A stretch of DNA of 64,000 nucleotides from Octopus vulgaris (Eukaryota). The DNA lies in assembly GCA_951406725.2 (NCBI GenBank), contig OX597815.1, positions 38,688,001-38,752,000 on the forward strand. Direction: 5' to 3'. This document shows, in pieces, positions 8,461 to 62,914 of the stretch (position 1 is the stretch's first letter; every line of letters begins with the position of its first letter). The position numbers and the translations under genes are program-made. Under the pieces are notes generated by a model. That model saw only the letters and a program-made list of their open reading frames with translations. It ran no database searches and was not told the origin of the DNA.

Positions 8461-9140
8461 CTACGAAATATTTTTAGATATACACGATGTTATTTTGCTC
8501 TAGCGTTACCTACCATGAAATATTACCTTTATATTCTTCCATACAAAAATACTATACCTTTATCCTGCAGACGAAAATTAGTTTCCAATATCAGTTAAAT
8601 ATCTTTTTTTTATATTCTTATATACACAAAGATATTTTACATTTCAGGCAAGTATATTTGCAGAAACAAATATTTATATTAATACTGTAGATTCCTTGTC
8701 AACATCCTAGTGTTGTTAGTTATCCAACTATTTGCAATGAGTTGTTTTTTCTCCTCGTTTCCAGCTGTGTTGCGAACAAACTTGTGAACCAAGGTGTGAA
8801 GGATACCATAGCAACATTAATAGAACACAAACACATAAAGTTTCATTTGCTAAAATAAAGTTATTTCTTGATACGGTAGCATTATATTAGTTAACGAGGG
8901 TTTTCTTTACTTAATACTCTGCATATTAACAGCATCTGTAATATCTAGATATAAAACATTTAATTCAAGATTTCAGGTAAGCAAATACATATGGAGCCGG
9001 CGAAATACCTGGAAGTAGGATAAAACAGATTGAAATGTTCATCTATTACTACTACAGCTGCTAAAGCCACTCCCTTACAACTACAACTATTATTAATACT
9101 ACTACTACTACTACTAATAATAATAATAATAATAATAATA

Positions 9141-9509
9141 TGGAAGTGTTATCATGTACATTGTTTTGATTTTCGTATAAAATATGGGCTACAGCAAATA
9201 TTTTGCTCAATACCACAAATTTGCTTGTCAGTTGTTTGACCTTAACCAGTTGAGCATGTCCCTTAGTGGTTGACAATATGTGCATCTCTGATCACGAGCA
9301 GAGGTGGCTGGGGAGCATCATAGCCATGTGTTGAGGGGTATTCTTTGCGGTTTGAATAATTCACCTCTGGAAACATGGGCGTTTCGTTCAACATCCTTAA
9401 ACATACCTTATTCAGGGACTTTTTGAGCGGGATGGGTTACTCGACCAGAAGAAAATTCTAATTGGGCCCTACCTGCAAGGTCATGTGCTGTTTATCTTGA
9501 TATGAGATC
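9141..9509 (+). mobile_element. Non-coding ~570-bp TAA-associated element, partial copy
   Basis: Matches 10998-11569 and follows (AAT)n. Confidence 0.8.
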
Positions 9510-9512
9510 CTA

Positions 9513-9860
9513 CCTGGTATCTCAGATACCAGGAAATCCTAATACGGAAGAAATTTTTTAAAATAGTGCTCGTGTCGTGGTACTGTTTATATCCTAAAAC
9601 AATATTGTCTATATAATCCCAAAACATCTCTTACTTAGGATCAAACTGTCGTCTTATAATCAAATTACTTACAATCAAATTACTTTTAAAACAAACTTCT
9701 AAGTTTTGTATGACATACATTCTCTAGAATAATAATCTGTGCAAAACCAAAGTATAGCACCCTAGTCATATACCAACTTGAACTTCTGGCCTCTTGTCTC
9801 TAAGGTGTCCGGGTGAGACTTGGAGTCAACTTTTACAAATACAAAGCAAAAGCCGAGCAT
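9513..9860 (+). mobile_element. 3' end of an R4/Dong-type element, diverged relative of family B
   Basis: Decayed QIPGNP..KIVL..GT..IL...LSI* followed by a 3' UTR similar to 47340-47428. Confidence 0.7.
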
Positions 9861-10907: not shown

Positions 10908-10933
10908 TAATAATAATGATAATAATAATAATA

Positions 10934-10968
<35 letters not shown>

Positions 10969-10997
10969 AATAATAGTAATAATAATAATAATGATAA

Positions 10998-11569
10998 ATA
11001 CCCTAATGCAGTACCTTGCTCTAATGTAGTACTAGGCAGTGGCACACATGGCTTTTCACCTTAAACTGATTGAAAGTGCTATCATGTGCATTGTTTTGTT
11101 TTCGTATAAAAGATGGGATACAGGAAAGATTCTACTCCATACCTCAGATTTGCTTGTTAGTTGTTTGACCGTAACCAGTTGAGCATGTCCCTCAGTGGCT
11201 GACGATATGTTCATCTCTGATCACGAACAGAAGTAGTGGGGGAGAACCATAGCTATGTGTTGAGAGAAATTCAAGGGGTTTGAATAATTCACCTCTGGAA
11301 ACATGGGCGTTTCCTTCAACATCCTTAAACAACCCTTATTCAGGGAATTTTTGAGCGGGATGGGCTGCTCGAACTGAAGAAAATTCTAACTGGGCCCCAT
11401 CTGCAAGGTCATGTGCTGTTAATCTTGATATGAGATCACCATGTCGCGCACATATGGTTGTGATGCATGTGACTGGTGTACCCTTATCAGATGGATAGTT
11501 ATGATGGGTATACTCGAATTCGTATATTTTACCCGTGTCACTTTGATGGCATGCACTGCTCTCTCACTC
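10998..11569 (+). mobile_element. Non-coding ~570-bp TAA-associated element, full-length copy
   Basis: Flanked by (AAT) tracts, ends CTCTCTCACTC-AATAAT; six copies in the window. Confidence 0.85.
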
Positions 11570-11591
11570 AATAATAATAATAATGTTAATA

Positions 11592-11897: not shown

Positions 11898-11940
<43 letters not shown>

Positions 11941-11942
<2 letters not shown>

Positions 11943-12195
11943 TAAAAGATGGGCTACAGCAAATATTCTGCTCAATACCACAGATATACTTATCAGTTGT
12001 TTGACCATAAGCAGTAGAAAATATCCCTTACTGACGATATGTGCATCTCTGATCGCGAGAAGGAGTAGTGGGGTGCATCATGGCCATGCGTTTAGAGGAT
12101 TTCTTTGGGATTTGAATAATAACCTCTAGAAACATGGGTGTTTCGTTCACTGTCCTTAAACAAACCTTATTCAGGGACCTTTTGAGCAGGACAGG
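11941..12195 (+). mobile_element. Non-coding TAA-associated element, partial copy
   Basis: Matches about 11106-11365. Confidence 0.75.
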
Positions 12196-12269
12196 CGTTT
12201 CCTCCGTCTTTACCTTCTGACGTCAAATTCTGCTGATGTCTTCTTTGCCTTTTATTGTTTCGAGGTCGA

Positions 12270-14330
12270 TGCGAGTCGTCCTATCCACATTGGCACATGC
12301 AAGAAATCCAATCGGTAATTCTCGGACAGTTAAAAATTTCTGATTAGGTTTGCGAGACTTTTGTACCCCTTCTCTTCTAACACTGGCCCTACACAATTTA
12401 AACATGAGTCCATGATGGTGTTCCAGTTACCCATTAGCACTAAAGGTCGAAACGTTCCCAGTATAACCTCCAGACGTCTGATGAAATCTAGCTGTTTTGC
12501 TCTTGTTAGAGCATAAACAGTCACCTGTCTGAAAGCATCTCCGTCGTTACTGTTCCCATCGAGGACCACCAACTTAGCTTCTGGGTCATGACGATAGACC
12601 TTATCTTGAGATCCGGACCTTTCCGGAACAACACCATATTTCCAGCCCATTTCTGGTTGACAGGGAGATAAATAAATCTCATATCTACTAAAATGGGGAT
12701 GAAACCTTGTAGATTGGAAAATCTAGTCTCACGGATAGCTAAAACTATACTTAGTTACCTGAGGTCGTTGCGTATGTGATCTTCTTTCCAAGGTGACTCC
12801 AGACCACGTGCATCTACACTACGTATTCTGAGCAAGGCCTTGTTTGTGAGAGAGAAGGAGATTGAAGAGAATCGCTTACCATATTTCTGTGGAGAGACAT
12901 ATGTTCTGTCCTTCTGGCTATCCTTTTGCATCCATAAACATTCTTTTGTTTATGTTCTCTCTCGAAGAGCTCCCATTCCATTCGAATACTCTGGTGTTGT
13001 AAGTTGCTTTTTTATAATTTTTAAGTGAATTGGGGTACTATGCTAGGGTGAGATATGTGTATTTAATGTCCGTGTATTTTTTAATATGCTTATATTCTTG
13101 TTTATGTCTATGGCCGTGTAATTGATGATAACTTGGGTATACTGTTCATACTGATTTCGATTGCAATTTTTTTCGTTTGTTGAAGTGTTTGTAATATTAG
13201 TGGTGTTTGCTGTGTTGAAGATGTTTGTAATTGCCTTGGTGTAGTGTGTGTAGGTTTGTGATGGGTTGTTGCTTTGTGTGTACGGTGTTTTTCATTTTGT
13301 AATTTTTTTTCCATTACCCCTTCACTAGGATCCATCCTCGTGGTTTTCTCAAACTGATTTCCTCTCTAGACGAGTTTTCACAGACGGAAAAAATTAGTGG
13401 TAATGGAGAGAAATATATCTGCATACATGCACATTTCTAAGCTGGGGTTCTGGTCGACTGGCATTGGAGAAGCTTCTTTCGGTTATGAAAGTTCAGGTGT
13501 TGTTATTGTCTTCCTCCGATGTGGTACCAGCTCTTGTTGCTGATGTTGTTGGATGAATCCCTCCTACGTCCCCTTCTGTTGATGCTGTTCCTGTTTTGGA
13601 TGCTGCTGCTCTTGGTACTGTTGTTGTTGGTGTTGGTACAGTTGGTGGCGATGGTGGTGATGCTACTATTCATTTTGGTGCCGTTGTTGTGTTACAGATG
13701 TCCATAGCAGTAGGGGGTTTCATTTTCCATGCATGGGGGAGAAAGCCGTTAAGTGAATTGTCTCGCCAACATACGGCATCTCGTCTTTCTGCCCTCGACT
13801 GGTACGAATAGCTGTGTAGTATTATGGAAGTCGATCAGATCAGGTATGTCTTTGCTTCTGATCGGATCGGCGTGTTTCCATAATTCTATTCCTGTGCTAG
13901 ATCAATTTTCCTTTCCCATTCAGTGCACTTGGAGAATAGTAGTTTATTTTTACCTATGCCGCATAAAACGGTTGCCACCAGCAAAGCGATGTCCACTTGG
14001 GCTGGTACCTCTGTTACTTTTATTTTAAACACCCTCCAACCGAGGTATGTCGGAATTAGCAATACTTTCTCACTTTTGAAGTGTTATCTTGAACTTTCTT
14101 TGCCTTTTCTTCAGTTGGAAATTTCACCTCAACTGTGCCAAAGCATCTCTCACTGGCGACATGTTTTTATCCACCAGACTGCTCATAGGTATTTTTCGAT
14201 CTAGGCCTGAGTCACTCACTCCAGTCTCCTGTTTTTTGTTGAAATACAATTGTATTTAATAGTATTTAATGTCTTCCTGTATTTCCTCTTGCGTGTTTAG
14301 AAATATTATTCTGCCATATTTTTAAGTGCG
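12270..14330 (-). mobile_element. Decayed L1/Tx1-like LINE 5' part (ORF1 relic + APE endonuclease)
   Basis: ORF 12330..12650 (DPEAKLVVLD...VYA...LVLMGNWN) resembles an APE endonuclease; P/T/Q-rich ORF1-like sequence lies upstream. Confidence 0.6.
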
Positions 14331-14749
14331 CGTTGGCGTTACAGAGCGTTTTTTTTTTCTGACACGTCTCTATACAATGACACTTGTGAAAGCCGTTCCC
14401 TTTTGTTTAGAAATAAGAACAAGTGATGTTTCTGTTGTATTAATGTTTGTTTTGGAGGGGGCCGAAGAGGTAGTCGTGGTTATGTTATTACTAATTTTAT
14501 TCTACTCATGCTGCACATTTGGCTACTGTTGTTGTTATCTGCAATTAGTGGTGGGAAGATAGTATCATATTAGCTGTTCCAAGAGCTATCATTTGGCTCG
14601 ATTTGGGAAGCTATATTGTTATTCTTTGTATTTAACTAATAAATTTCAAATTTTTAATCTCAAAATTCGCCCTTGAAAGGAGAATCTGCCGCCAAGCCAT
14701 TAACGCAACACATTTTAAAGCACGAACAAGAGTCCTCTCTTTCTAAACA

Positions 14750-14820
<71 letters not shown>

Positions 14821-14850
14821 TGGTGATGATGATGATGATGATAATAACAA

Positions 14851-15184
14851 GATTGGAACTGTTATCATGTAAATTGTTTTGTCTTGGTATAAAAGATGGG
14901 CTACAACAAATATTTTGCTCAATACCACAAATTTGCTTGTCAGTTGTTTGACCTTAACCAGTTTTGAGCGGGATGGGTTACTCGACCAGAGGAACGTTCT
15001 AACCGGGCCACACCTGCAAGGTCATGTACTGTTTATCTTGATATAAGATCACCATGTCGCGCACATATGGTTGTGATGCATGTGCCTAGTGTACTCTTAT
15101 CAGATGGGTGGTCATGATGGGAATACTGGGCTTCATATATTATACCCCGGTGTCACTTTGATTGCATGCACTGCTCTCTCACTC

Positions 15185-15185
<1 letters not shown>
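14851..15185 (+). mobile_element. Non-coding TAA-associated element with internal deletion
   Basis: Matches the 5' and 3' parts of 10998-11569 and is flanked by (AAT)n on both sides. Confidence 0.8.
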
Positions 15186-15239
<54 letters not shown>

Positions 15240-15455
15240 TTAAACGATGATATATTAAATGACAGCAACAAAGCCACCACATAAAAGCACTGCTAAGATA
15301 TAGGTTCAGAGGTGTCAAGCTTATTTGAAATCAAACTTCCAACATAACGAGCAAGTTACAGAGGTGAGTCATGTGCAATTATACATAAATAAAAATATTA
15401 GATCAATAATACTGTGTACAATATTTAAGGTCCATTTTTCTTTTCTTTTGTTCAG

Positions 15456-17938
15456 AGTTCAAATGTAAACACAATCAGCAATTCATCACCCTCAAGCTCG
15501 AATGACAGTCCAGAAAGCTCCAGTTTGGCATCAAGTCAAGAAATGTGTGTAACAACTGCAAGCAGTGTGACATCTGATGCTAGTGTTAGCACAAGTCCTA
15601 TTACAGTGGAAAATAGATTACTTGAAACTGATCGACGAGATCCGAATTTGAGTAACCAAAGATCTGAAATGACAAAGCAAGAAAGACTAATCAAAGGTAA
15701 CACACCAGAGAAGAATAAAGTCGAAGAGGTTAGTAAAACAGACAATGTGAAAAGTGATAGCAGTCCTCATACTAACAGCTGGAATGAAAGAAAATTAAGA
15801 TATACTAGAATCCAAGAAAAAGGAGAACCCACAATTGGACATAAGGAAAATATGAATACATACGAGAAATATCCTATATCTGCAACATCGATTGCATCCA
15901 GTCTTCCAAATAGCAATGAAGACATCATAAAACCATTTCTTCCAATCCCGTTATATCGCAGATCAAACCAAGATCCAAGAAGCTCACCAAAATCAATGCT
16001 GAAAGCAACCGATAGTCCTTTGATACAAGCAAAGTACAATAATAAAGTGCTTCAGCAATGTACGTATGAAGAGGAAGAATTTTATTCGGCTAACATGCAT
16101 GAGAAATTTTCCAGTTCAGATACAATTCCAGTCGAGGAAAATGAATTTAATATAAATAGCAATCAAAGCCAAGTCAACTCTCCATGCATTAGGAAAAAAG
16201 AACAAGTGGTAAAACTTAGGCCGAAACCTCAAACTAGAACTTCCGTAGACAAGCTAGCAAAAAATGCAATTATTCAAAGTAATGAAAACTCTCTAAAAGT
16301 TAATAGGCCTGCCACACACTCTGAAAACAGCTTTGTTTCAGATCTATCAAGTAAAGCAGGGAACTTTACGCTGCCAACTCCAGTGAAGCAAACAATTTTG
16401 AAAGGTAAATTAGAAAACAGTCCGGGGTTATTTTCTGAAGATTTTCCGAAAACGAGATCACCTCATCATTCACCTTATGATAAGCAACATTTAACTGTAA
16501 GCCCGAATAGGCATTTTAGTTCTGATTCAACTAGTTCAATACCATTCCGAAATATAAAAGACTCCAGAACATCTAGAGCAATTGTAACAAAACCTATACA
16601 AGAGCCAACAATATTATGTAACAAACAACTAGTAAAAAGATTGCCTTATCCAGAAGCTGCTCCACTTAAAAATACTAGGATGTCGACAAGTGTACCAATT
16701 AGTCCTGTTCAAACACCAAAACGAGTAAGTCAAACAAGTGGACTTCAATCAGAAGGAAGTAAGTCACCAATAAATAAACCAGAAGTACCTGGTAAGCCAA
16801 GCAATGTAATAAGCACAAAGGGAAGCCGAATACCCATCAGTAAGTCAACACGCTCTGTTGCCTCACCACCAAAACCTAATCGGCTTGTTATGAACAGATT
16901 AACTAATCCCTATGGTGGCCTTAGGCTTTCCTCTGATAACACTTCAGCTCCTAGAAAGAATCTGCCACCATCAAATATCGAGAATGACATGCACCACCTA
17001 TATCCAGAAAATTTAAGTTTAGTAACTGAACCTCCTTTTCAATCGCCCCCGATTTCGGAAGTTACTCATAAGGAGAGTATCATGTTTAAAAAGAAACAAA
17101 GCGGCAATGAATACTTTGAATCAAGTGCCAGTGACCAATCCCCAGCAATGACGGCAAATGAAACTACGACGCTGAATAGGAGGATACACATGGATGAAGA
17201 GGAAACATACAGTAACTGCAGTATAAAACAAACAAATTTGGATGAAACTGAATCCTCAAAAATGTCAAGTCGGGAAAAAATTCCCAAATCTCGTAAACAT
17301 GACAGTTTCATACGATCTTCCAGCTGTGAAGTACAAGTCGGGTCTCCTACGAGGGGATCGCCAACAACTAACTTCGCGGTAGAAATACCAATAGATGCAT
17401 CAACGGAGACATCACATACGAGATCAAGACCAAAAATGACGATGGTAGAGACCTCAATGCTAAATCAAGAGAATTATAACGATACTGACAAGAATTATCA
17501 CGATAACGCTACATTGCCTACTGGGTTCCACATGGTGACAGAAGAAGAAAGAGGAAAACATAAGTCATTTAAGCAAGATGCTGCTGCTCAGACATCACAG
17601 CTGGATCTTTATGAAGAAAATTACAACAAATATTTTCAGGGTGGAAAAGAAATGTTTCAATACAGACAACATGATGCTGCAGCTCAAACATATTTAGAGA
17701 CGGAGGTAATCGAAAGATCACCGGAAGAGAATGGTGCCGATGCACTAATGTATGAATTTGCATCAACTACGTCTTTAACGGCCTCCCTTCCATCGAGTGC
17801 TAGACAAGCCCATCATCACATCAAAATGGGAGGAGCTTCTTTGAAGACTCGACCTTCGTCAGAAGTGGTGGAAATGAAACAAAAGAAGTTCTATAAAGCC
17901 AACCATTTATACCAGAATCCCTTAGAACCTTCACGATC
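15456..17938 (+). CDS. Large 2.48-kb coding exon of the host gene; S/P/T/K-rich, probably disordered region
   Basis: ttttcttttgttcag acceptor; the 805-aa ORF 15525..17942 is open in the same frame from 15456; GTAAGT donor at 17939 (phase 2). Confidence 0.9.
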
Positions 17939-19780
17939 GTAAGTTTTTTAAAATATTTTTATTTTAAAGGATAAAATGAAAATACTTTTTCTCATTTTTA
18001 AATTACTGCTCCTCGTTATAGTTGTTTGCATATTACGGTTTTAATTAACTTTATTTTCCTGTCAGTTATTTTTTGTCTCCTCCAGTTTCCTCTCCTCTTA
18101 CTATTATTACTATTAGTTATTATTATGATCATGTTATTGTTGTTGTGTCATTGTTGTTATTTGTGGTGGTGGTGGCGGTGGTGTTACGTGATACTGTATT
18201 TTTTATTACGGTTGTTTCCCTTGAATGGCCACATTTCACAAACTCAACTTGGAAGAACATTCCGTCTAAGAATACTTGATAAATTAGAACTTTTAACCAA
18301 CAAAAGACTTCGTAGTATTCAATGATTGGACTGGAAATGTAGAATCGTCTTAACCTTTATTTTTGAACTAAAAATTATTTTTTGTACTAAAATCGACGAG
18401 CTGGCAACGAGCTGGCAGAATCGTGAGCGCTTCAAACAAAATGCTTCCTGGAATTTCTTCCGGGTCTTTTAAGTTCTGAGCTCAAATCCTTCCGTGATAA
18501 ATTTTGTCTTTTATCTTTTCAGAGTCGATAAAGTTAAGTAGAAAATGAGCACTTAAGATGATGTAATCAAATAACCCGCTAACCCTGAAAGAAATACTGG
18601 CCGTATGTCAAAATTTTGGAACATTACTTGAAATGCTAGACGTAATGGTAGTAGGAATGAAAACATTACTGTTCCCAGTGTTTTAAAATACAACAGCAGG
18701 TTTGAAAAAATGATAACGTAAAGAAACAGACATACTATATACAGTTAAATTTTAAGAATCACAAAAAAACTCAAATTATTTTACCATTTAGTAAGGATCG
18801 GAGCCTTTTATTTACTAGGACCTTCAAAGTCAGTGATAAGAAGGACGGGCGTTACTTTCAAGCCACAAACATGGCCTGAATGCCTACAACATAGTGAACT
18901 CTGCTAAAAGTATCCAAGAGTCTTGTAGTGTTTTTAACGGATTAAATTTATCATTTCAGACTGCACGGAGCCAGAGAAAATACTGCACATCTGGTACTAA
19001 AATACGTTTTTGATAAGAAGGGGTTGTAAAATGAGCTAATTCTAGTGGTAAAGTCTACATAAATAAAAGTTGCTGAATATAAAAGAGGCAATACAGAGGC
19101 CGGCCCGACTTCATATCCAAATGATGAGCAGTATACTCAGGTTATTGTCAGATTATAGTTTGATGGGCTAGTCAGCTCACTGATTAGGTGCACTGGATGG
19201 TATATCAGCAGTCTTTAATTTAAGCCACTTACCCTAGTTATTACCCACCCCTTAACCATAAACATTTCCCTAAATATTCGAATAGGTTTCTCTCTTAATA
19301 TTTAATTCTATAATATCTACTCAGTTTTTAATGTAGTATATACTGTCCTAAGCATTTTAGGGCCCCTTACAATATACACCATTTTGCCATTCATTTATTT
19401 GTATATCTTACCCCGTATAAGGATCTCAATAGCTGGTCTTCTGTTTTTTAATTTCAACTAACCAATTATATCGCACGTTGAACCTTGGCCTATCACACTT
19501 CGGACAACAGGTGGAAGGGCTTAACCTGCTTCTAGTAAATAAATAATAACTTACTTTTAATCGATTAGCACTTTATTATGATAAATACTATTAATTAGTA
19601 CTATAAACATAATTATTAAAAATTATTATGATTACATTAAAATCTTATTGTATCTTCACTCCTCCTTTTGGCTAATCCTACTATTATTTTTTAACTTTTA
19701 TTATTTAGCTATCCCATCCCCCCCCCATACAAAGGATTAATCCACCAAATACTATTTTAAGTTTAGTCATTTACTTAACG

Positions 19781-22684: not shown

Positions 22685-23760
22685 ACTATACGATAGCTCA
22701 CAGCTTATTTCACTGGGTATGAGGAAAAGTTTCAGCTGTCCACAATCATCAAACTAAGGTGACACTAGTTTACTGATCAAGCTTCAAGAACCCTGAGAAG
22801 AATTCTTGCAGTTCCAAGCAATGCTGAGTTTTGTAGGTGTTCTACCTTCACACTTGTACCGATCAGTTTCAGCCATGTTGGTAGTTGAGTGCTAGCACTT
22901 CCAAGTGCACCAATAACTACTGATATCACGTCTACTCTCTTCATTGACCACAACCTTCATATTTCCCACTTTAAATCGTCATAGTTGTTTATTGCTTCTT
23001 CATCTTTCACATTGATCCTGTTGTCACCGAAGCATTATCATACATGTTCTTTCTTTTTTATTCACCAAAACAATGTCCGGTATCCCATGTCTGGTCAGGT
23101 GATCGCACTGGATCATTGCGTCCCACAAGATTTTTGTAATTCTCATTTTCGTTGACTCCTTCTGAAGTTTCCTCATACCACGACTTTGCTCTTTGTAGGC
23201 CGTGATTTCCACAGAGCTCCCAATTGCTCATTCTTGCCACATTGTCGCTATTGGTAGTGTTGTCTTTTCTGTACTTCATATAGTTGGTCCTTAACGCCTG
23301 TACCTCAGCTGCACATATGAATGCTTCTGTTCTATCTTCAGGTCACTCCTCCTCATCCATAGCCATCGGTCCTCTGTATCTGTCTTGGCATTCATATCTC
23401 TTGCAAACTGACCGTACATTTTCTCTTCCTTCCATGTTTTTTTTCTTTTATTTTTGTTCATTTCTTGTTTAAAATTTTCTTTAGTTACACAATTTTCTGT
23501 TATGATGACGCCGGCCTTCTTCGTGTTTCAACAGTTGCTCCACGGCATTTTTATATGGTAACCCAGGCAACTGATCAAACCTCTCCCACCATTTCTTCTG
23601 GAGAAGTACAGCCTATCGGTGTTACTCTTAGAGTGGAAGGCTCCGTGTACTGTCAACATTTTATTTGGTCTTGGTATCTATTGTCTTCATTTCTCTCTTT
23701 TGCCATTTTATAATTCCTGCTCCATACCGAAGTGATGCTATCATCCACGTATTAACTGAT
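22685..23760 (-). mobile_element. Decayed R4/Dong-type RLE element, family F
   Basis: Fragments ELCGNHGLQRAKSWYE, KILWD...IPDIVLVNKKERTC, EHLQNSALLGTARIL; TAA tracts on the minus strand at both ends. Confidence 0.75.
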
Positions 23761-23789: not shown

Positions 23790-23857
<68 letters not shown>

Positions 23858-41764: not shown

Positions 41765-42190
41765 ATAATTTTTCGGTTCCCTTCTTGATCATTCCTAGTG
41801 CTCCTACGATCACTGGTATTGTAACCGCCTTGAGATGCCACATTTTCTCAATGCGGTTACAATACCAGTGATCGTAGGAGCACTAGGAATGATCAAGAAG
41901 GGAACCGAAAATTATATGAGAATGATCCCTGGCTTACCATCCCTGCAAGAAGTGCAAAAGATTGTCTTAACTGGTACATCACACGTATTGAGAAGAGCAT
42001 TGTCGATGTGAGAACTGTTGCTGCTCATGTATTTTAATTTAACATTAAAAAAAAAAATTTTTTTTAAATGAACGAACTACTGAGTTTGGTTTAATGGCCT
42101 ACCAATGTATACTATGAGTTTCTTTGCCCTAGGAGTCGGTAAGACACTCGGCAAGAAATGGAAGCAAATTTGAAAGAAGAAAAAAAAAAG
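41765..42190 (+). mobile_element. 5'-truncated family C element with inverted 5' segment
   Basis: 41765-41828 is the reverse complement of 41853-41915; then AVTIPVIVGALG...LSM* plus 3' UTR. Confidence 0.9.
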
Positions 42191-42212: not shown

Positions 42213-44665
42213 AAAGTATCAAAATAACAAACTCGGCATCTGAACAACTTTGGACCCACATAACAACTGAAGAGGTCACCCAGGCACTGCAAAACTAAGC
42301 AACTGGAAGGCACCTGGGCATCACAAGATCCCCAACTTCTGGTTGAAATATCTAACAGGAATGCACAAAAAGCTGGCTGAAAACTTTAACAGCATACTAG
42401 CAGAGCCAGAGACAATGCCTGAATGGCTCACGAAGGGGAAAACCATCTTAATTCCCAAATCAAATGAAACAACAAAACCAGAAAACTACAGACCAATAAC
42501 CTGCCTCCCTACTATGTTCAAGGCATTTACTGCAGTGATATCGCAAAAGCTGAACAAGCACCTGGACGAAAACAAACTGTTCCCAGAAGAACAGAAAGGA
42601 TGCCGCAAAGGCTCATATGGCTGTAAAGATCAACTAATGATTAATAAAGCCGTAACTGAAGACAGCCACAGAAAGAAGAAAGGCCTCAGTATGGCCTGGA
42701 TTGACTACAAAAAGGCGTTTGATAGCATCCCCCACACATGGATCCTCGAAACACTAGCCATTAACAAAGTAGCACCAACAATCATAAAATTCATAGAGCA
42801 CTCTATGAATAAATGGCAAACAGTCCTACACCTCCAAACAAAAGAGGGACTCATGAAAACCAAAGACATCCCCATTAGAAGAGGAATATTCCAGGGAGAC
42901 ACGCTCTCTCCACTCCTTATCTGCTTGGCACTGTCACCTCTATCTGATATGCTAAATAGAACTGGATGCGGATATAAATGTTACGGCAAAACGATCAGCC
43001 ACCTTTTATATATGGATGACCTAAAACTATACGCTGCAAATGACAAACAGCTGGAAACACTATTAAAGACAGTTCATGGATTTACCAAAGAAATAGATAT
43101 GAAATTTGGATTAGAAAAATGCGCCAAAGTAACCATGAAAAGAGGAAAACTAGTTAAGAGTAACAACATCACACTAGATAAAACCAATGAAATAAAAGAA
43201 TTAGACCAAAGCCAAACTTACAAATACTTAGGAATCCATGAACTAGATAAGACACAACACTCACAAATGAAAGAGAAAATAAAAAAAAGAATATTATAGA
43301 CGAGTTAGATCAAGACTAAAAACAGAGCTCAATGCTAAAAACAAGATAATAGGTATCAACACTTTAGCTGTCCCAGTTATAAGTTACAGCTACAATATCC
43401 TTAACTGGACACGAAATGAACTGTCCAAAATAGATAGGAAAACAAGAAAAATACTGACAGGATCTAGGATGCATCACCCAAAATCTGACATAGAAAGACT
43501 ATATATACAACGTATAGAAGGTGGTAGAGGCCTTATACAGCTGGAAAACTACTATAAAATAACCACCATAGGACTGCAAAAATACCTACTTCAGAAGGAA
43601 GGAAAACTGATCCAGATAGCAGCAAAACACGAGCAAAACAAAAAACTGTTCTCAGTATTTAAGGAAGCTGACAAATACAAACAAGAAATCAAACCACCTA
43701 ATAAACATGAAGAAGAAGAAGATGATGAAGAAACAACAAAAGCTATAAAACAAATGAAATCCAAACTAAAAATAGAACAGCAACGAGCCATGATAAAACG
43801 ATGGCAAGAAAAGCCCCTTCATGGTAAATACTGACTAAACTAAATGCAAAAGAAATAGACAAAGAAAAATCCCAGCAATGGTTGAGAAGCTCAGGACTCA
43901 AAGCAGAAACAGAGGGATTTTTAATTGCAGCACAAGACCAAAGCCTCCCCACCAGAAATTACCAAAAACATGTAATGAAAAGAAATATTACAAGTAACTG
44001 CAGAATATGCGGAGATGAACAAGAAACAATAAATCATATTATCTCTAGCTGCCCAGTCCTGGCTAAGAAGGAATATATTCACAGACATGACAAAGTTGGA
44101 ACCTACATACATTGGAAGCTATGCCAACATTATGGAATAACAACAGAAAAAAGATGGTATAGGCACACACCAGAAAAGGTCACAGAAAACGAGAAAGCAA
44201 CCATACTCTGGGATATGCCGATACACACAGATAGAGAAATTAAGGCCAACAGACCAGATATAGTTGTCAGAGATCATGAAGAGAAAAAATGCTTTCTAAT
44301 TGATGTATCAATACCGGCAGATGACAACGTGTCTCTAAAAGAAATGGAGAAACTCTCAAAATACAAAGACCTGGAAATAGAGGTAACTAGAATGTGGAAC
44401 CTGAAAACAGAAACAATTCCTATCATAGTAGGTGCATTAGGCATGATAAAAAAATATTCAGACAAATACATAACAAAAACACCAAGACTTACAAACACAT
44501 ATAACATACAGAAAATTGCACTACTAGGCACTGCACACATCCTACGCAGAACACTTTCCATACAATAACCATCAGAGCATCACAACAAATCACAGCACAT
44601 ACCCAAGGCACACGGAGCTGCGCTCGGTAGTGAAGTGAAAGCACGCTATAAAAATAAAACTACTG
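42213..44665 (+). mobile_element. 5'-truncated R4/Dong-type element, family A (RT + CCHC + RLE; frameshifts and a stop)
   Basis: ORFs 42343..43299 (GIFQGDTLSP, YMDDLK), 43469..43834 and 43882..44568 (CRIC..H..C, RHD, RPD, D, K..KY); (AAT)n on both sides. Confidence 0.95.
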
Positions 44666-44714
44666 AATAATAATAATAATAATATCATCAGTATTATTAT
44701 CATTATTATTATTT

Positions 44715-45290
44715 ATTGTTTTTGCACAGCTTCTAACTCTGGAGGTGTGCTACGGAGCCAGATGTTCACTACAAGTGAACTAAGGTAACACCTCTTATTT
44801 TTCGAGCACCTTCCGGAGTATTCGAGCGGTTCCAAGCAGTGCTGTTTTCTGCAAGTGCTCCACTCTTATTGCAGCCCATATTTGTTTCATGTACTTCTTA
44901 ACATTTTTACTCACTGTTCCCAGGGCTCTGACATTTATCGGTACTACTACCATCTTTTTGCTTGACCACACCTGCTTAACCTCCCAAACTAATCTATCAT
45001 ATCTATCGTCTTTTATTTCTTCTTTATCGCATACCTTGTTGTCAGCTGTGTATGTTATATCTATGATCCAGCATCGTCTGCGTTCTTTCTCAATTAACAT
45101 ATGTCTGGTTTCCTATTCTTTATCTCATAGTCGCACTGAATCATAAAATCCCATAGGATCTTTGCATTATCATTTTCGATGTTGCCTTCGGGTTTATGTT
45201 CGTACCACTTTTTTGCTCTGTCAAGTCTATACTTGTTGCAAAGTGTCCAATGGACAATCCTTGTTATATTGTCATGACATCTTTGATATT
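44715..45290 (-). mobile_element. 3' fragment of R4/Dong-type element, family E
   Basis: ORF 44795..45100 (IIDI...RYDRL...LQKTALLGTARILRKVLE); tail is TAA-rich on the minus strand. Confidence 0.8.
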
Positions 45291-45299
45291 CTTTCTGGT

Positions 45300-45930
45300 G
45301 TACATCTGATATGGTGTAACAATCACCACTAGATCAAAATCAGAATGTAATATAGGCTGTTATCAGCATTTCGCAACATTCCCTCCCCTTTGTCGAGAGT
45401 CGTGGCATGCCGTCGAAGTGGGCGCTAAAGTCCATCCTGCGTTCCAGATTTCCATTTGTCCCAAACAGTTGAGGGAAGTGCTGCTCAAATGCCACATCCG
45501 CTCGGGCTCCAGTACCCTGCGCCGAAGACCGTATAGTGACATTGTTACCACGTTGCGCCTCTGCCACTTGGATCCATCAAGCATACCCAGTAACTGGGAA
45601 GGCCTTCTAAGCCTATCTAGGTTGACCATACAGATCACAAATTTGTGGTGTGTGTAGCCGATCAGTTTGAAAAGTGGACAACTTACACTATCTTTATCTA
45701 CCAGCCTACAGAATACCTTGACGGACCGAGCGAGCGATGCTAAACGATTCCGACAAATCACCGTTTGCTTTGATCACTGAACAGATGCCGCTATACGTTG
45801 CAGCGATCCAGCCTCTGAAAACGGCACCGAAGCCAGACGCTGGCAGGACTGCCCCCAAATATTGATGGTCGACCCTGTCAAAACCTTTTGATTGATCCAA
45901 GCCCCACCCATTCCAGGTTCCTTCCCAATC
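45300..45930 (-). mobile_element. L1/Tx1-like RT fragment
   Basis: DQSKGFDRVDHQYL...GFG...WI...SVRQG. Confidence 0.65.
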
Positions 45931-46025
45931 CTCTCTGCTTTCAAAGGACGTGAAGGTGGACGAAATGCTGCTAAGTATTTTGCCCGACGTGCTAACGGTT
46001 CTGCCAGCTCGCTACCTTAATAATC

Positions 46026-46092: not shown

Positions 46093-47428
46093 TAGGGTGG
46101 TGCATAGAATGCACCACCCTAAGGCAGATACAGAACGACTCTATCTGCCAAGAAAAGAGGGAGGCCGTGGTCTTTTGCAACTGGCAATAACAATGAAGAT
46201 TGCTACAATTGGCCTAGACACCTACCTGAAAAACTCTGAGGACTGGATGCTAAAACTTGTCTCAAAACATGAAAACAAGAAAGCATCATACTCAGTCACA
46301 AAACAGGCAAAGGAATATCTAAGTGAATTCCGAATACAACCAATTTCGGAATTAGAGATAGATATACAAGAAACAAGCACAGAAAAAGCTAGGCGCATGA
46401 AAACCCGTGCCAAAACTGCGGCCTTAGATATTCTGAATAATAAATGGCAAGAAAAACCTCTCTATGGCAAATACCCAAAGAGAGCGAATAATGCAGATAT
46501 CGACAAAGCCCTGACCCATCAATGGCTAATGGCCTCTGGCTTAAAATCTGAAACAGAGGGGTTTATCATAGCAGCTCAAGATCAATGCCTACCAACAAGA
46601 AACTACCAGGCCAACATATTAAAGATCAGAAGCAGTCCAACGTGTCGTGTATGCAAGCAACAAAATGAAACCATTGACCATGTGGTCTCCAAGTGCAGTC
46701 TTCTAGCGCCTACTGAGTATCTCAACAGGCACGATAGAGCTGCACAATATATTCACTGGGTAATCTGTAAAAACCTGGATTTGCCCCATGAAAAAAACTG
46801 GTGGAAACACAAACCACCCCCAGTGCTTGAAAATGACCACATCTCACTCCTCTGGAACTTCACCATTCAAACTGACAGGAAGATAGATGCAAATAGGCCA
46901 GACATCATATTGAAAAACTTCAAACAAAGAACATGCCTCCTCATTGATATGACTGTCCCAATCGATATAAACGTATCTGTCAAGACCTACCAAAAACTGA
47001 GCAAATATAAAGATCTTGAAATAGAAATCAGCAAAATGTGGAAGCTGAAGACTAAAACAATACCTGTTGTCATAGGTGCCCTGGGAATGATAGCAAAAGG
47101 GGCTGATAGCTACCTAACTCAGATACCAGGAAACCCAAAAATGGCAGAAGTTCAAAAGATAGTGCTCATGGGAACTGCTCATATCCTACGCAAAATACTC
47201 TCTATGTAATCTCAAGGTTTAAAACAGACATAATTTACGGTTTAAAAAAAAAAAAAAAAAAAAAAAACTTTTTTTTTTAGACATTCATTAGTACAACATC
47301 CCCACCCCCCAAATATATGGCACACTAGGCATAACAACAACATGAACTTCCAACCCTGTTGTCTCTTGAGGTCTCTGGGTGAGACTTGGAGCCAACTTGT
47401 ACAAATATAAAGCAAAAGTCAAACATAG
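46093..47428 (+). mobile_element. 5'-truncated family B element with snap-back 5' end and TSD
   Basis: Open frame HRMHHPKAD...CRVC..H..C...RHD...RPD...ILSM*; nearly identical to 61520-62835. Confidence 0.95.
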
Positions 47429-47456
47429 AATAATAATAATAATAATAATTATAAGT

Positions 47457-47517
<61 letters not shown>

Positions 47518-47519
<2 letters not shown>

Positions 47520-48043
47520 GACCTGATCTAATACCACGCAGTGGCTCTCATAGCTTCTGATCTTAATTGATTGGAAGTGCTATCATGTAAATTGTTTTGT
47601 CTTGGTATAAAAGATGGGCTACAGCAATACCACAGATTTGCTTGTCAGTTGTTTGACCTTAACCGTTGAGCATGTCCCTTAGTGGCTGACGATATGTGCA
47701 TCTCTGATCACGAGCAGAAGTAGTGGGGGAGCATCATAGCCATGTATTGAGAAGGATTCTTTGGGGTTTGAATAATTCACCTCTGAAAAGATGGTCGTTT
47801 CCTTCAATATCCTTAAACAACCCTTATGCAGGAACCTTTTGAGCGGGATGGGCTACTCGACCAGAAGAAAATACTAACCGGGCCACACCTGTTTATCTTG
47901 ATATGAGATCACCATGTCATGCATATATGGTTGTGATGCATGTGCCTAGTGTACCCTTATCAGACGGGTAGTCATGATAGGTATACTGGGCTTCGTATAT
48001 TTACCCCAGTGTCACTTTGATGGCATGCACTGCTCTCTCACTC
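47518..48043 (+). mobile_element. Non-coding TAA-associated element, near full-length copy
   Basis: Matches 10998-11569 and is flanked by (AAT)n. Confidence 0.85.
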
Positions 48044-48050
48044 AATAATG

Positions 48051-48123
<73 letters not shown>

Positions 48124-48125
48124 TA

Positions 48126-48182
<57 letters not shown>

Positions 48183-48848: not shown

Positions 48849-48865
48849 AAATAATATTAATAATT

Positions 48866-49063
48866 TTTTCTACTAAAGGCACGAGGAGTGGGCGATTAAG
48901 CGATTACAGTGTTCCCAGTGTTTCACTAGTACTTAATTTATCGACCCCGAAAGGATGAATGGCAAAGTCGACCTCGGCGGAATTTCAACTCAGAACGTAA
49001 AAACGGGCGAAATACCGCTAAGCATTTCGTCTGGCGCGCTAACGATTCTGCCAATGCACCGCC
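48866..49063 (-). mobile_element. SINE family 2 copy
   Basis: Matches 28978-29191. Confidence 0.85.
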
Positions 49064-49100
49064 TTAATAATGATGATGATGATAATAATAATAATAATAA

Positions 49101-49233
49101 TATGCTCTGATGCAGTACCAGGCAGTGGCTCTCATGGCTTCTGATCTTAACAGATTGGAAATGTTATCATGTACATTGCTTTGTCGTAGTCTAACAGATG
49201 GGCTACAGCATATATTCCACCCAATACCACAGA
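49101..49233 (+). mobile_element. 5' part of the non-coding TAA-associated element
   Basis: GCTCTGATGCAGTACCAGGCAGTGGCTCTCATGG..., between (AAT) tracts. Confidence 0.75.
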
Positions 49234-49258
49234 TTATAATAATAATAACAACAACAAC

Positions 49259-49352
<94 letters not shown>

Positions 49353-57934: not shown

Positions 57935-60900
57935 GTTTTTTACGATGCTCTGAACTGGCAACAGCGAACCCAGCAGGTCAACTGTAGAAAACTGGAAGAT
58001 CTACTGTTTACTGTAAGTAATTTGAATTACCCTCAAAATAAGTAAAAAAAAAACTTACATATCTACAGCTCATACAAACGTACACCTAACAAGAAAAATT
58101 AGAAACATAAATATCTCCAATTCTGTGTGAACATTTACATTTAGTCGTCTCTCATGACTATAAGAATGTGTAAAATTGCCTTTTAAATTACCTTTTATTG
58201 TAACAACACAATTATATGCACGATAAAAAGTTATGAAATTAAGCACCTACTACTATATACATACAACTGAATTCAGAAATTTAAAAATATATACATAACA
58301 TTGAACTCAGAAAGTTATTTAAAAAAAGAAAAAAAAATCTTCGACGAAAACATCAGATAATATGTGTGAGTGAATATACATATATATACATATACATATG
58401 CATGTGGTGAAGAAGAAAAGAAAGAAAGGAAAAAAAAAAAATAAATAAATAAATAAATAAACGTAAAAAGGTTTGACCTTTTACTGACCATTAACGTCCT
58501 TTGTCTCCACCATCTACCGTGGCTATTTATAGACCCAAAGAACATGAATTCTTTAACCACCCATTCTCCAACACAATGGAGTGTTGATGGTGGCTGTGGC
58601 TACACATAAAACAATGTCATTGAAGATGATGATGGTGATGGTGATGTTGCTGATGATGGTGATGGTGGTGAAGATGATAGTAATAACAATAATAACTGAC
58701 AGATCCCGTCTTTTTCCCTTTCTTTTCGTTTCCTTCTCCGTATTTTATTCTCATTATTTCGAACTAATACAGACACAGTAAGCCTTGAAGAAAGGAAGAG
58801 GAGGAAAGGAAAAAAAAAAAAAAAAAAATGTCCGGAGATAAAACTATCAACAAAAAAAATACAGACGAATATAGATCTGCTAGTCTTAAGAAGCGGCGCT
58901 ATGAGCAATGCTTACATGTAGTGAACCCTAAACTGACAGATCCATCTCCTAATATAAGAATGGATGCTCGTCATGCTTCAAGGTCAACAAATCAAACAAT
59001 AAACCGCATTGGTCATTGCGCGGATTACAAAAGACCACGTACCCGAAAATTGAACCAAATCCTGATTGAAAAATCAGTTACTGGATCAAATCTTCCCAAC
59101 ACACAGGAGCTGGACGAACCCCACAACCGGAATATTCCAACAGATGGCCATCCATGCTCATCACCAAATAATCAAAAGAAAAAGAAGGAAAAATGGTCTA
59201 GGGAAGATAATAAAGAAGTTCTTGAGGCCTTCTACCATGCCATATATTTCCCCACAGATAAGTCTAGCACTGTACAAGCATACTTAAACTGGAGACAGAA
59301 ACACCCTGAAGTAAGACCCTACATAGACAGTAACAAGCTTGCCAATGTTAGAAGAAACATTATAAAAAAGAAATTACTGACTGAAGTAGAGATTGATCAG
59401 GTTAGACAAGCAATATCGGATAAAATGAACGAAGCTGCAGCTAGAGAAGATAATACAGAGGAAATGATTATAGACCAGCCCAGGGCGGATAAAAACGAAG
59501 AGAGGATTGAAAGAGTTAGTATAAGTGATAGGCAAAGTGAAATACGCCCTGAATCAATCATAAACACTAAGACAGATGAGCATCAAATAGATAAAGAAAG
59601 TCATACAAATATTGACCCAACAGAACTACATGAGCTAAAAAATCAAATCATGATTGAATGGCTGAAAATTAAAGAAACCAGCATGGATGAGCGTGATACA
59701 CTTCCTAAAATCCGCAACTCTAACCAAAACATGAAAATAATTGGTAAAATCCGGCTTGCACTTAAGGATATAATTTCAGTTAATGATGTTGATATCACAA
59801 ACCTCAACCACCTATACTATGCATCCGCGAAAATCTCAACGATCCTATGTGGTGTAAAGATTAGAAAACGGCAACAGTCCCACAAAAAGCCTTCTTGGCA
59901 AGAGCGTCTGCAACAACAAATTAAAATATTTAGATCTGACATTGAATATTTGAAAAACCTTAAGGCTCACAAGATTACCAAACCTACAAAAACCCAAAAA
60001 TTACTGAAAAAATACAATATGAAAACTATACTTGATATTGATGCCACCATAGAAACCATCAAACAAAAGGTATCTGCCAAAGCTGCCCGCATAGCGAGGT
60101 ATGAAAAGCGTGTTAGATTTTTCAAGGACAACAACATGTTCAAAAATAACACCAAGAATTTTTACAGGAAGATAGGAAAAACAGCGTTTACTGTAGGGTC
60201 TGTACCATCAAAAGAAGAAGTGCAGAGATTTTGGAATAAAATCTGGGCAGAAGAAAAAACACACAACGAAAAGGCCCCCTGGATTGACAGAATATCTACA
60301 GAACTGGACCCCTTAGAAGAGCAAAAGTGGGAGGGTGTCAAGGTAGAAGATATAAGATCTGCTCTCAGGAGGTCAAGCAAATGGAAGTCTCCAGGAAAGG
60401 ATAAAATTCCTAACTTCTGGCTGAATGCCTTCCCAGAGAGCCATGAACTGCTAACAGAACTGTACAATGATGTTTTGCAACACCCTAGTAGGATGCCTCC
60501 TTGGCTAGTTAATGGGTTAACATTCCTGCTTCCAAAAAGTGAAGAAACAAATGAACCAAAAAACTATAGACCCATAACCTGCTTAACAACTATGTACAAA
60601 ACACTAACATCTGTCCTGACGGAATATACCTATAGTTTTTTAACAGACAGCAGCATATTCCCTAATGAACAGAAAGGATGTAAACGTGGATCCTACGGCT
60701 GTAAAGACCAACTACTCATCAATAAGATGATCTTAGAAGATTGTCACAAACGACACAAAAACTTATCAATAGCCTGGATAGACTATAAAAAGGCTTTTGA
60801 TAGCCTACCACATAGCTGGATTAGGAAATGTCTTGAAATGTATAAGATAGCACCAACTCTGCGAAACTTCTTGACTGTAAGTATGAGATCATGGAGAACC

Positions 60901-62835
60901 ACACTAACTCTGAACAGTGACAGTGAATCCCTAAATGCTGGTGATGTAAAAATTTCGTGTGGCATTTTCCAGGGTGACTCACTGTCACCACTCCTCTTTT
61001 GTTTATCCTTAATACCTCTCTCAAAGCTGCTCAATGACGCGCAGTACGGGTATAAAATGTTTGATAAAAATATAAATCATCTCGTTTACATGGATGATTT
61101 AAAGCTTTTTGCAAAAAATGATCAACAACTCAAGGGCTTACTAGCGATAGTCAAACAATTCAGTGACGACATCAGAATGCAATTCGGCCTCGATAAATGT
61201 GCAAAGGCTACCTTTATCAAAGGAAAAATGACAGAAACATCTAACGTTAACCTTGACCAACGTTAACCTTGACCAGAGCTACAAGTACCTAGGGATAATT
61301 GAAGGGAACGGAATAAGGCATTCAGAGATGAAGGAAAGGATCAGGAGAGAATGCTATCGAAGAGTGAGAGCAATACTCAAGACAGAGCTGAATGCAAGAA
61401 ACAGGATCGAAGCAATCAATGCATTAGCTATACCAGTCGTGACTTACAGTTTCAATATTGTTAACTGGTCAATTACTGAAATATGTCAGCTCGACAGAAA
61501 AATAAGGAAACTGTTGACAATGCATAGAAGGCAGATACAGAACGACTCTATCTGCCAAGAAAAGAGGGAGGCCGTGGTCTTTTGCAACTGGCAATAACAA
61601 TGAAGATTGCTACAATTGGCCTAGACACCTACCTGAAAAACTCTGAGGACTGGATGCTAAAACTTGTCTCAAAACATGAAAACAAGAAAGCATCATACTC
61701 AGTCACAAAACAGGCAAAGGAATATCTAAGTGAATTCCGAATACAACCAATTTCGGAATTAGAGATAGATATACAAGAAACAAGCACAGAAAAAGCTAGG
61801 CGCATGAAAACCCGTGCCAAAACTGCGGCCTTAGATATTCTGAATAATAAATGGCAAGAAAAACCTCTCTATGGCAAATACCCAAAGAGAGCGAATAATG
61901 CAGATATCGACAAAGCCCTGACCCATCAATGGCTAATGGCCTCTGGCTTAAAATCTGAAACAGAGGGGTTTATCATAGCAGCTCAAGATCAATGCCTACC
62001 AACAAGAAACTACCAGGCCAACATATTAAAGATCAGAAGCAGTCCAACGTGTCGTGTATGCAAGCAACAAAATGAAACCATTGACCATGTGGTCTCCAAG
62101 TGCAGTCTTCTAGCGCCTACAGAGTATCTCAACAGGCACGATAGAGCTGCACAATATATTCACTGGGTAATCTGTAAAAACCTGGATTTGCCCCATGAAA
62201 AAAACTGGTGGGAACACAAACCACCCCCAGTGCTTGAAAATGACCACATCTCACTCCTCTGGAACTTCACCATTCAAACTGACAGGAAGATAGATGCAAA
62301 TAGGCCAGACATCATATTGAAAAACTTCAAACAAAGAACATGCCTCCTCATTGATATGACTGTCCCAATCGATATAAACGTATCTGTTAAGACCTACCAA
62401 AAACTGAGCAAATATAAAGATCTTGAAATAGAAATCAGCAAAATGTGGAAGCTGAAGACTAAAACAATACCTGTTGTCATAGGTGCCCTGGGAATGATAG
62501 CAAAAGGGGCTGATAGCTACCTAACTCAGATACCAGGAAACCCAAAAATGGCAGAAGTTCAAAAGATAGTGCTCATGGGAACTGCTCATATCCTACGCAA
62601 AATACTCTCTATGTAATCTCAAGGTTTAAAACAAACATAATTTTCGGTTTAAAAAAAAAAAAAAAAAAAAAACCTTTTTTTTTTTAGACATTCATTAGTA
62701 CAACATCCCCACCCCCCAAATATATGGCACACTAGGCATAACAACAACATGAACTTCCAACCCTGTTGTCTCTTGAGGTCTCTGGGTGAGACTTGGAGCC
62801 AACTTGTACAAATATAAAGCAAAAGTCAAACATAG
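57934..62835 (+). mobile_element. Near-full-length (~4.9 kb) R4/Dong-clade RLE non-LTR retrotransposon, family B, inserted in (TAA)n
   Basis: ~0.9-kb 5' region, single-ORF architecture (N-terminal domain, RT, CCHC, PD-(D/E)xK), 3' UTR; (AAT)n on both sides. Confidence 0.93.
58828..62616 (+). pseudogene. Family B retrotransposon protein (Myb-like N-terminus, RT, zinc knuckle, restriction-like endonuclease), broken by two indels
   Basis: ORFs 58828..61266 (KWSREDNKEVLEAFY; KWKSPGKD; NYRPITCL; GIFQGDSLSP; YMDDLK), 61253..61597 and 61582..62616 (CRVC-H-C, RHD, RPD, KLSKY). Confidence 0.9.
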
Positions 62836-62854
62836 AATAATAATAATAATAATA

Positions 62855-62914
<60 letters not shown>

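Follow-up and report, generated by a model that had tools for sequence, protein, structure and literature searches.

A short non-coding repeat in TAA arrays of octopus genomes, a candidate passenger of R4/Dong retrotransposons

Octopus genomes contain an abundant family of short non-coding repeats, and its six copies in the stretch of Octopus vulgaris DNA that we analyzed (64 kb; hereafter the window) all start at arrays of the trinucleotide TAA. The most plausible reading, to which we assign a probability of roughly 0.6, is that the repeat is a non-autonomous retroposon mobilized by a TAA-targeting R4/Dong protein. We prefer it because the copies are targeted on both sides, have one orientation, fixed ends and left-biased truncation, and keep the company of RLE elements. 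An earlier note on this DNA had already proposed that a TAA-specific RLE protein mobilizes the repeat in trans. That proposal agrees with the flanks, the orientation, the phase of the junctions and a 3:1 ratio of left to right truncation, but a shared tail and covariation were not found, and one copy truncated at its 3' end is a point against it.

Results

Six copies of a 556-bp unit

Searches of the window by blastn and nhmmer with positions 10998-11569 as query found six copies, all on the + strand, with E-values from 1e-179 to 1e-16; the next match has E >= 0.36. These are exactly the six loci named in the earlier note, and the only ones matched. The copies diverge by 5.4-11.1% from a 556-bp consensus. 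The length of about 570 bp first claimed needs a small correction: 556 bp is the size of the unit, and 572 bp is peculiar to copy 10998 because that copy carries an 18-nt duplication at its 5' end. The common ends were described correctly, with three copies sharing the 5' start and three the 3' end, which reads CTCTCTCACTC followed directly by AATAAT. The copies are:

10998..11569, +: full-length copy, consensus 1-556 plus the 18-nt 5' duplication (10998-11015), 7.4% from consensus
47518..48043, +: full-length copy, consensus 1-556, internal deletions of 13 and 15 nt, 6.1% from consensus
14849..15184, +: 5'-truncated copy (consensus ~50-556), internal deletion of ~170 nt, 3' end intact
9141..9509, +: 5'-truncated copy, consensus 55-422, right end fused to an RLE 3' fragment
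11943..12195, +: 5'-truncated copy, consensus 91-349, broken by an unrelated insertion
49101..49235, +: copy that keeps its 5' start but stops at consensus 134 through 3' truncation, flanked by TAA left and right

Three copies are therefore truncated on the left (at consensus ~50, 55 and 91) and one on the right (at 134), and two have lost their right part to other insertions (at 9510 and 12196). The ~2.5-kb insertion in copy 11943 (12196-14740, − strand) looks by eye like a putative decayed L1/Tx1-like 5' part.

Association with TAA arrays

The left flanks of five of the six copies pass a strict test for TAA, which 2.3% of window positions pass as background, and the sixth copy adjoins a TAA/GAT array. 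Right ends adjoin TAA in four of the six. As controls we used 14 other repeat copies in the window, which have TAA at none of their left ends and at one right end. All three left-truncated copies still adjoin an array. The flanking arrays are:

9115..9140, +: TAA array, upstream of copy 9141
10908..10997, +: TAA/GAT array, upstream of copy 10998
11570..11583, +: (AAT)n, downstream of copy 10998
11898..11942, +: TAA array, upstream of copy 11943
14750..14848, +: TAA then GAT array, upstream of copy 14849
15185..15243, +: (AAT)n, downstream of copy 14849
47429..47517, +: TAA array, upstream of copy 47518
48044..48127, +: (AAT)n, downstream of copy 47518
49066..49100, +: TAA/GAT array, upstream of copy 49101
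49236..49351, +: TAA array, downstream of copy 49101

The statement that the repeat occurs only in TAA arrays thus holds for the six copies of this 64-kb window, and co-orientation holds without exception, all six lying on the TAA strand. Arrays of (TAA)4 or longer in the window number 35 on the + strand and 2 on the − strand. Insertion into TAA arrays in a single orientation, which is expected of Dong/R4 elements, is seen in 6/6 copies. The array on the 3' side begins in the AAT phase at all three complete ends of the repeat and at 11 of 20 RLE ends, the other RLE ends being compatible with it; this agreement lends weak support, because a match by chance has odds of about 1 in 3.

Some further features of the arrays can be recorded. 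The strand that carries 35 of the 37 arrays and most of the RLE fragments is also the strand of a host exon (15459-17939). Proteins of Octopus sinensis and O. bimaculoides match the exon at 99% and 86% identity, and the O. bimaculoides relative is named as a PDZ domain-containing protein. Copy 49101 sits within the TAA tail of a short repeat (48860-49065), and the RLE fragment at 46095 likewise used the tail of another (45896-46018), so that the TAA tails of short repeats seed targets for later insertions. Inverted (TTA)n blocks stand beside (TAA)n blocks inside the arrays at 62856-62912 and 23791-23856.

Absence of coding capacity and of known RNA or transposon signatures

Like EhSINE1, the repeat is a short defined unit without coding capacity. 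Each of the six consensus frames holds 4-8 stops, which bears out the initial impression that there is no ORF; a Dong/R4 ORF (RT, zinc finger, restriction-like endonuclease) was not found in it, and a comparison with RLE proteins gave no coding remnant (best tblastn E-value 0.09). ARAGORN has no match on the repeat, in agreement with the reported lack of a tRNA head. The Rfam search that had been recommended returned no family at the gathering score, and at E <= 10 nothing but chance matches on three copies, so that neither program finds homology to a Pol III head (tRNA, 7SL, 5S or snRNA). Neither strand has an A-box or B-box pattern; there is one GTTCAA at consensus 299, and runs of T4-T5 occur inside the repeat.

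Ribozyme searches were also negative. No HDV-like descriptor match has G1 at the 5' end or a canonical L3, and Rfam reports none; one loose internal descriptor match is equalled by 42 of 100 shuffled sequences. For the hammerhead, two CTGANGA cores on the + strand have no GAAA within 60 nt, the − strand has no core, and Rfam again reports none. The polyadenylation signals AATAAA and ATTAAA are absent from the repeat. We rejected a MITE (PIF/Harbinger, TAA target), since none of 13 uninterrupted helices of at least 10 bp pairs the two termini.

Abundance and discreteness

The 64-kb stretch, or part of it, is present in 20 of the 24 public runs listed. In four runs (run X20, share 0.06, is not among them), 64,146, 63,355, 42,884 and 6,397 contigs align to the repeat at 80% identity (copy 47518 was the reference for these alignments), and public runs of three organisms have it in 43,000-64,000 contigs each. 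In the best bins the summed depth reaches 5-10 million, compared to about 24-61 for the long contigs listed; summed depth is not itself a copy number, but it suggests roughly 10^5 copies. Six copies per 64 kb is of the same order, though the window is TAA-rich. Organisms A/B and C have different allele frequencies, as at positions 47755 and 47863. We set aside a greater depth over the 3' two-thirds of the repeat, which is confounded by the deletions in the reference copy.

In the four runs, the share of aligned contigs that continue into unlike sequence comes to 0, 0, 0.01 and 0, and all 24 loose ends listed, from a set with 2,274 further ones, continue into the consensus of the repeat or into its TAA flank. 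The 5' loose end listed for run X15, putatively an RNA run, reads (TAA)n-ATGCCCTGATGCAG. The O. bimaculoides gene model P0011 goes through the 5' part of the repeat in antisense and passes directly into poly-Ile, the same 5' junction of the repeat on a TAA array. Because there is no sign of contig extension and the 5' TAA junction recurs in the O. bimaculoides model, we conclude that the repeat is a discrete, abundant family common to octopus species.

Exact 18-20-mers of the repeat have no match in metagenome contigs or in genome contigs, and one match, by chance, in viral contigs. A profile of the repeat finds nothing among 31 RLE-related loci (best E-value 0.37). A literature search that covered papers, with octopus repeat libraries outside it, gave no description of the repeat, and six of its 17-22-mers occur in no paper. 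It is probably already in the octopus libraries as an unclassified SINE or unknown repeat, and possibly belongs to the SINE fraction of O. bimaculoides, which we take to be the one named 'Twitch'. SINEs make up 4% of that assembly (PMC12988792), and 1,279 unclassified SINE families and 1,102 unknown families are given for O. vulgaris (PMC13282606), whose library also counts 1,317 SINE and 190 Penelope-like families; further context is in PMC9115989 and PMC8967140.

Dong/R4 elements in the same arrays

The known target of Dong is TAA arrays (PMC3812793, PMC1635306), and Dong-R4 elements account for 92.7 Mb of O. vulgaris in 51 families (PMC13282606). In the arrays of the window we found 16 tblastn matches to the RLE endonuclease region at 14 places, and RT and zf-RVT domains among the RLE elements. 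The two main elements are:

58694..62835, +: frameshifted, nearly full-length Dong/R4-like RLE element of family B with RT and zf-RVT; its 3' stem-loop lies at 62771
42215..44666, +: Dong/R4-like element of family A, truncated at its 5' end; its 3' stem-loop lies at 44602

Metagenome contigs (33 of 64 parts scanned) gave 30 related RLE loci, and many of those with their 3' end present also run into TAA arrays. The same protein scans of viral contigs and genome contigs gave no relatives.

The main Dong/R4 lineage has a 3' stem-loop of the form CCYWRGG-N4-loop-N4-CTYRG, which lies 32-58 nt ahead of the array; we found it at 10 window sites and in 11 of the loci:

9799, 10398, 10845, 11830, 42127, 44602, 47364, 48791, 62771, 63759: stem-loop sites in the window
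L002, L004, L006, L007, L009, L013-L016, L025, L026; also L003:2100-2136: stem-loop loci

In an alignment of 15 examples, from which the mis-cut L003 row was left out, 87% of cells pair and 5 of the 10 pairs change on both sides. No more than 0 of 500 shuffles reach this covariation score, and slid controls pair in 16-46%. A covariance model recovers the 10 window sites and the L003 UTR on which it was not trained (E = 0.016). We regard the covarying stem-loop as a candidate signal for protein binding. The GG in its loop can pair with an upstream CC, giving a small pseudoknot.

The repeat does not have this stem-loop: it is absent by regular expression, and the best covariance-model E-values are 0.58-0.77. 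Local alignments to 17 RLE 3' UTRs and three 5' ends stay at the level of chance (lowest p 0.035 in 54 tests), as the earlier note had judged by eye; the lowest value belongs to a match of 11 nt with the tRNA-like start of L009, which, as one of 54 tests, we took as chance. Nor do the RLE elements of the window and the metagenome have homology to both ends of the repeat. Because stem-loop model and UTR alignments are both negative, we conclude that the main Dong lineage does not have the repeat as a common-tail SINE.

We also noted some features of RLE 5' ends. The apparently full-length R4 element L009 directly follows a TAA array and starts with a segment that resembles a tRNA (L009:24-101; 19.4 bits for Rfam tRNA, under the gathering score), a possible Pol III head or template jump. 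The 5' end of family B (58694-58830) has a pyrimidine tract and then a purine tract, with no HDV-like match; either it is unlike Bombyx Dong or it is not the true 5' end. Truncated RLE fragments have inverted segments at their 5' junctions, at 9510-9540 (with a short palindrome at 9513-9533) and 41765-41915 (a self-complementary match), which look as though they came from snap-back or twin priming.

A second R4 lineage and the predicted fold of the repeat

Two RLE fragments in the window differ from the main lineage:

44718..45309, −: E, RLE 3' fragment of a second R4 lineage, two-hairpin 3' UTR; candidate partner lineage
22685..23330, −: H, RLE 3' fragment of the second R4 lineage, 3' UTR homologous to that of E

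In a tree that left out rows shorter than 70 residues (L026 among them), E and H group with L009 apart from 15 other rows (support 100/99). E and H share a UTR that is unlike that of the main lineage (0/500 shuffles), and the Dong stem-loop model misses both. This lineage, too, ends at TAA-type repeats. Comparing the repeat with the E and H sequences gave no likeness (p = 0.046-0.87 in 18 tests).

E, L009 and L026 share a layout in which a hairpin with a 5-nt loop, able to pair just upstream, precedes a second hairpin with a loop of 15-24 nt. The last 110 nt of the repeat are predicted to be able to adopt a layout like that of E, through TACCC/GGGTA and ACTGGG/CCCAGT. Our earlier pseudoknot descriptor matched nearly everything, and a loose two-hairpin descriptor is matched by 136 of 400 shuffles, which is not significant. 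With a scored descriptor, whose ranges were set post hoc after the repeat had been seen, shuffles do as well in 1/300 cases for E, 8/300 for L009 and 0/300 for L026, and in 0/300 for the consensus, 0/300 for copy 47518 and 7/300 for copy 14849; copy 10998 is not significant (60/300) and H has no match. The predicted likeness to the second R4 lineage is a lead, not a result.

As a whole, the + strand of the repeat folds modestly better than shuffled sequences (z from -1.3 to -1.95) and better than the − strand (z = -1.88 vs +0.39). The 5' hairpin that had been pointed out is indeed predicted, with a pair probability of 0.98, but it is no more stable than in shuffles (z from -0.4 to -0.85). The TACCC/GGGTA and ACTGGG/CCCAGT hairpins proposed for the 3' end are absent from the minimum-energy fold, where a 13-bp hairpin uses their bases and excludes the two-hairpin form; they survive as a possible alternative predicted fold. 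The 13-bp hairpin window, consensus 441-520, is the sole outlier among 24 windows (z = -4.09). In copy 47518 the two predicted forms are:

47944..47991, +: predicted hairpin of 13 bp plus 7 bp in the 3' domain, as in the minimum-energy fold, z = -4.09, pair probability 0.98
47952..48010, +: alternative predicted R4-like fold, CCC paired with the 5-nt loop GGGTA of the hairpin at 47959-47979, then the ACTGGG/CCCAGT hairpin

As to covariation, no compensatory, two-sided change was seen among the variable sites listed, the count taking in 36 of the 37 places listed, at one allele each, while at least 28 more exist. Minor alleles at predicted paired bases (n = 15) keep the pair in 7 cases and break it in 8. 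Inside the 13-bp hairpin 3/3 keep pairing; a C>A allele at 47986 (22% in run X4), which is outside that count, would break it. RNAalifold on the six copies, in an alignment with terminal gaps, gives three pairs. Since no two-sided change was seen, what speaks for calling the repeat structured is its folding energy. A predicted 17-bp long-range helix (consensus 228-244 with 435-451) is equalled by 9 of 300 shuffles and is suggestive only.

Alternative origins

The earlier note had allowed that the repeat might be one end of an autonomous family. This has been weakened by the fixed ends on TAA, the O. bimaculoides junction and a contig run-on of at most 1%, with about 8 of the 51 Dong-R4 families compared. 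In its specific form, as the UTR of a Dong-R4 family that the window does not contain, or as a SIDE-like remnant left by deletion from such a family, we consider it improbable. The many families in O. vulgaris (PMC13282606) leave room for such a source, SIDEs are known to arise from R2 as deletion remnants (PMC3414825), and in copy 9141 the repeat is joined to the 3' fragment of an RLE element; on the other side, both ends of the repeat are fixed and TAA-flanked, the loose ends listed stay in the repeat or its flank, and it contains neither an ORF remnant nor a ribozyme. We give about the same low weight to a SINE-like passenger of an APE-type LINE (RTE, CR1 or L2) that would bring along a (TAA)n tail and insert into A/T-rich repeats, older tails among them. 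Octopus genomes are rich in RTE and CR1 (PMC13282606), and other short repeats in the window do end in TAA tails (49066, 46018). A tail of its own, though, leaves unexplained the arrays on the 5' side of 6/6 copies, which have four different breakpoints (controls 0/14), and such a passenger would be without the tRNA head and Pol III boxes.

Slightly less improbable than these two, yet still unlikely, is a non-autonomous Penelope-like element or solo pseudo-LTR put into microsatellites by a GIY-YIG endonuclease. Penelope-like elements make up 191 Mb of O. vulgaris (PMC13282606), Naiads occur in Octopus, favor microsatellites and are without canonical hammerheads, non-autonomous Chlamys elements exist (PMC8557442), and the length of the repeat suits a pLTR. 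The Octopus Naiad rows listed (two of four 'octopus' matches) favor (TA)n rather than TAA, however, and five 14-mers of the repeat are absent from the text of the Naiad supplement, in which sequences may be line-wrapped (PMC8557442); moreover, none of the six copies in the window is tandem or inverted, and there is no hammerhead core. The lowest probability, only a few percent, goes to a solo LTR or TRIM, derived from an LTR retrotransposon with a preference for TAA repeats. A TG...CA reading of the ends is possible and TATAAAAG lies near consensus position 88, but the flanks of the two full copies have no matching 4-6 bp duplication around TG...CA, a polyadenylation signal is lacking, variable 5' truncation and single orientation are unlike integrase products, and no loose end listed continues into internal sequence.

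Discussion

Proposed mechanism

In mobilization by an R4/Dong protein, the reading we prefer, we infer the expression of the repeat, its binding by a protein and its partner. A full-length RNA would be made, and because the repeat has no Pol III boxes and no 5' ribozyme, this would need either read-through giving a TAA-containing 5' end or an unrecognized promoter. An R4 protein may then bind the folded 3' ~110 nt of this RNA; this is the weakest step, and its most plausible partner would be the protein of the second lineage (E/H), with its similar two-hairpin 3' UTR. By analogy with known Dong targeting, the endonuclease would nick the TTA strand and the cDNA would start at the 3' end of the RNA (target-primed reverse transcription), giving a fixed CACTC/AATAAT junction and one orientation. 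Early termination would account for the pattern that we observed of 5'-truncated copies still adjoining an array. At 5-11% divergence, most copies would stem from an old burst.

A more daring version, which we hold to be doubtful, is that the repeat, which would rank among the most abundant of octopus, hijacks the R4/Dong protein purely by mimicry of a 3' RNA fold, with no Pol III head, ribozyme or partner sequence. Its RNA would perhaps switch between the long hairpin and a pseudoknot plus hairpin, and repeat and Dong together would build nested piles of elements in octopus TAA microsatellites.

Relation to known systems

EhLINE1 of Entamoeba histolytica is placed in the R4 clade. Its passenger EhSINE1 resembles the octopus repeat in being 500-600 bp long, with no ORF and no identified small-RNA precursor, and in having a partner with an REL endonuclease (PMC2996970, PMC1635306). 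EhSINE1 differs in having ~70 bp at its 3' end in common with its LINE and in not being sequence-targeted, whereas the octopus repeat has no detectable tail in common with any RLE element compared, is found in TAA arrays and has roughly 10^5 copies. The SIDEs of R2 and R2/R1 in Drosophila are likewise non-autonomous and insert site-specifically, as passengers of a non-LTR element that is itself site-specific (PMC3414825), but they have a 5' HDV-like ribozyme and the 3' UTR of their partner, and are rare and in rDNA; in the octopus repeat we found neither ribozyme nor partner UTR. The repeat would work like both, but because the SIDE ribozyme test failed and no tail shared with the RLE elements compared was found, we file it under neither type.

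Dong of Bombyx, Anopheles and Biomphalaria and octopus Dong-R4 have the TAA target in common with the repeat (PMC3812793), and the Dong-R4 elements of the window also agree with it in arrays, strand and junction phase. Dong is autonomous, however; its main lineage has the 3' stem-loop that the repeat is without, and Bombyx Dong has a 5' HDV-like ribozyme (PMC3774820) that we did not find in the repeat. The octopus SINEs OK, OR2 and tRNA-Deu and the unclassified O. vulgaris SINEs are similarly abundant short repeats, and the divergence of the repeat overlaps reported expansions at JC 0.065 and 0.09 (PMC13282606); OK and OR2 are listed as tRNA-CORE SINEs, whereas the repeat has no tRNA head.

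What is likely new here is the targeting and the partner, the sequence itself probably being in automatic repeat libraries. If confirmed, the repeat would be a rare example of a non-autonomous retroposon with microsatellite specificity and, at its rough copy number, a far larger family than the known RLE passengers (EhSINEs and R2 SIDEs). The covarying 3' stem-loop, which Dong-like elements across animals have, is a testable candidate for the R4/Dong recognition signal, and the repeat would in turn offer a natural minimal template for what an R4/Dong protein recognizes in RNA. Some of the many unclassified repeats of octopus genomes would then have a named mechanism.
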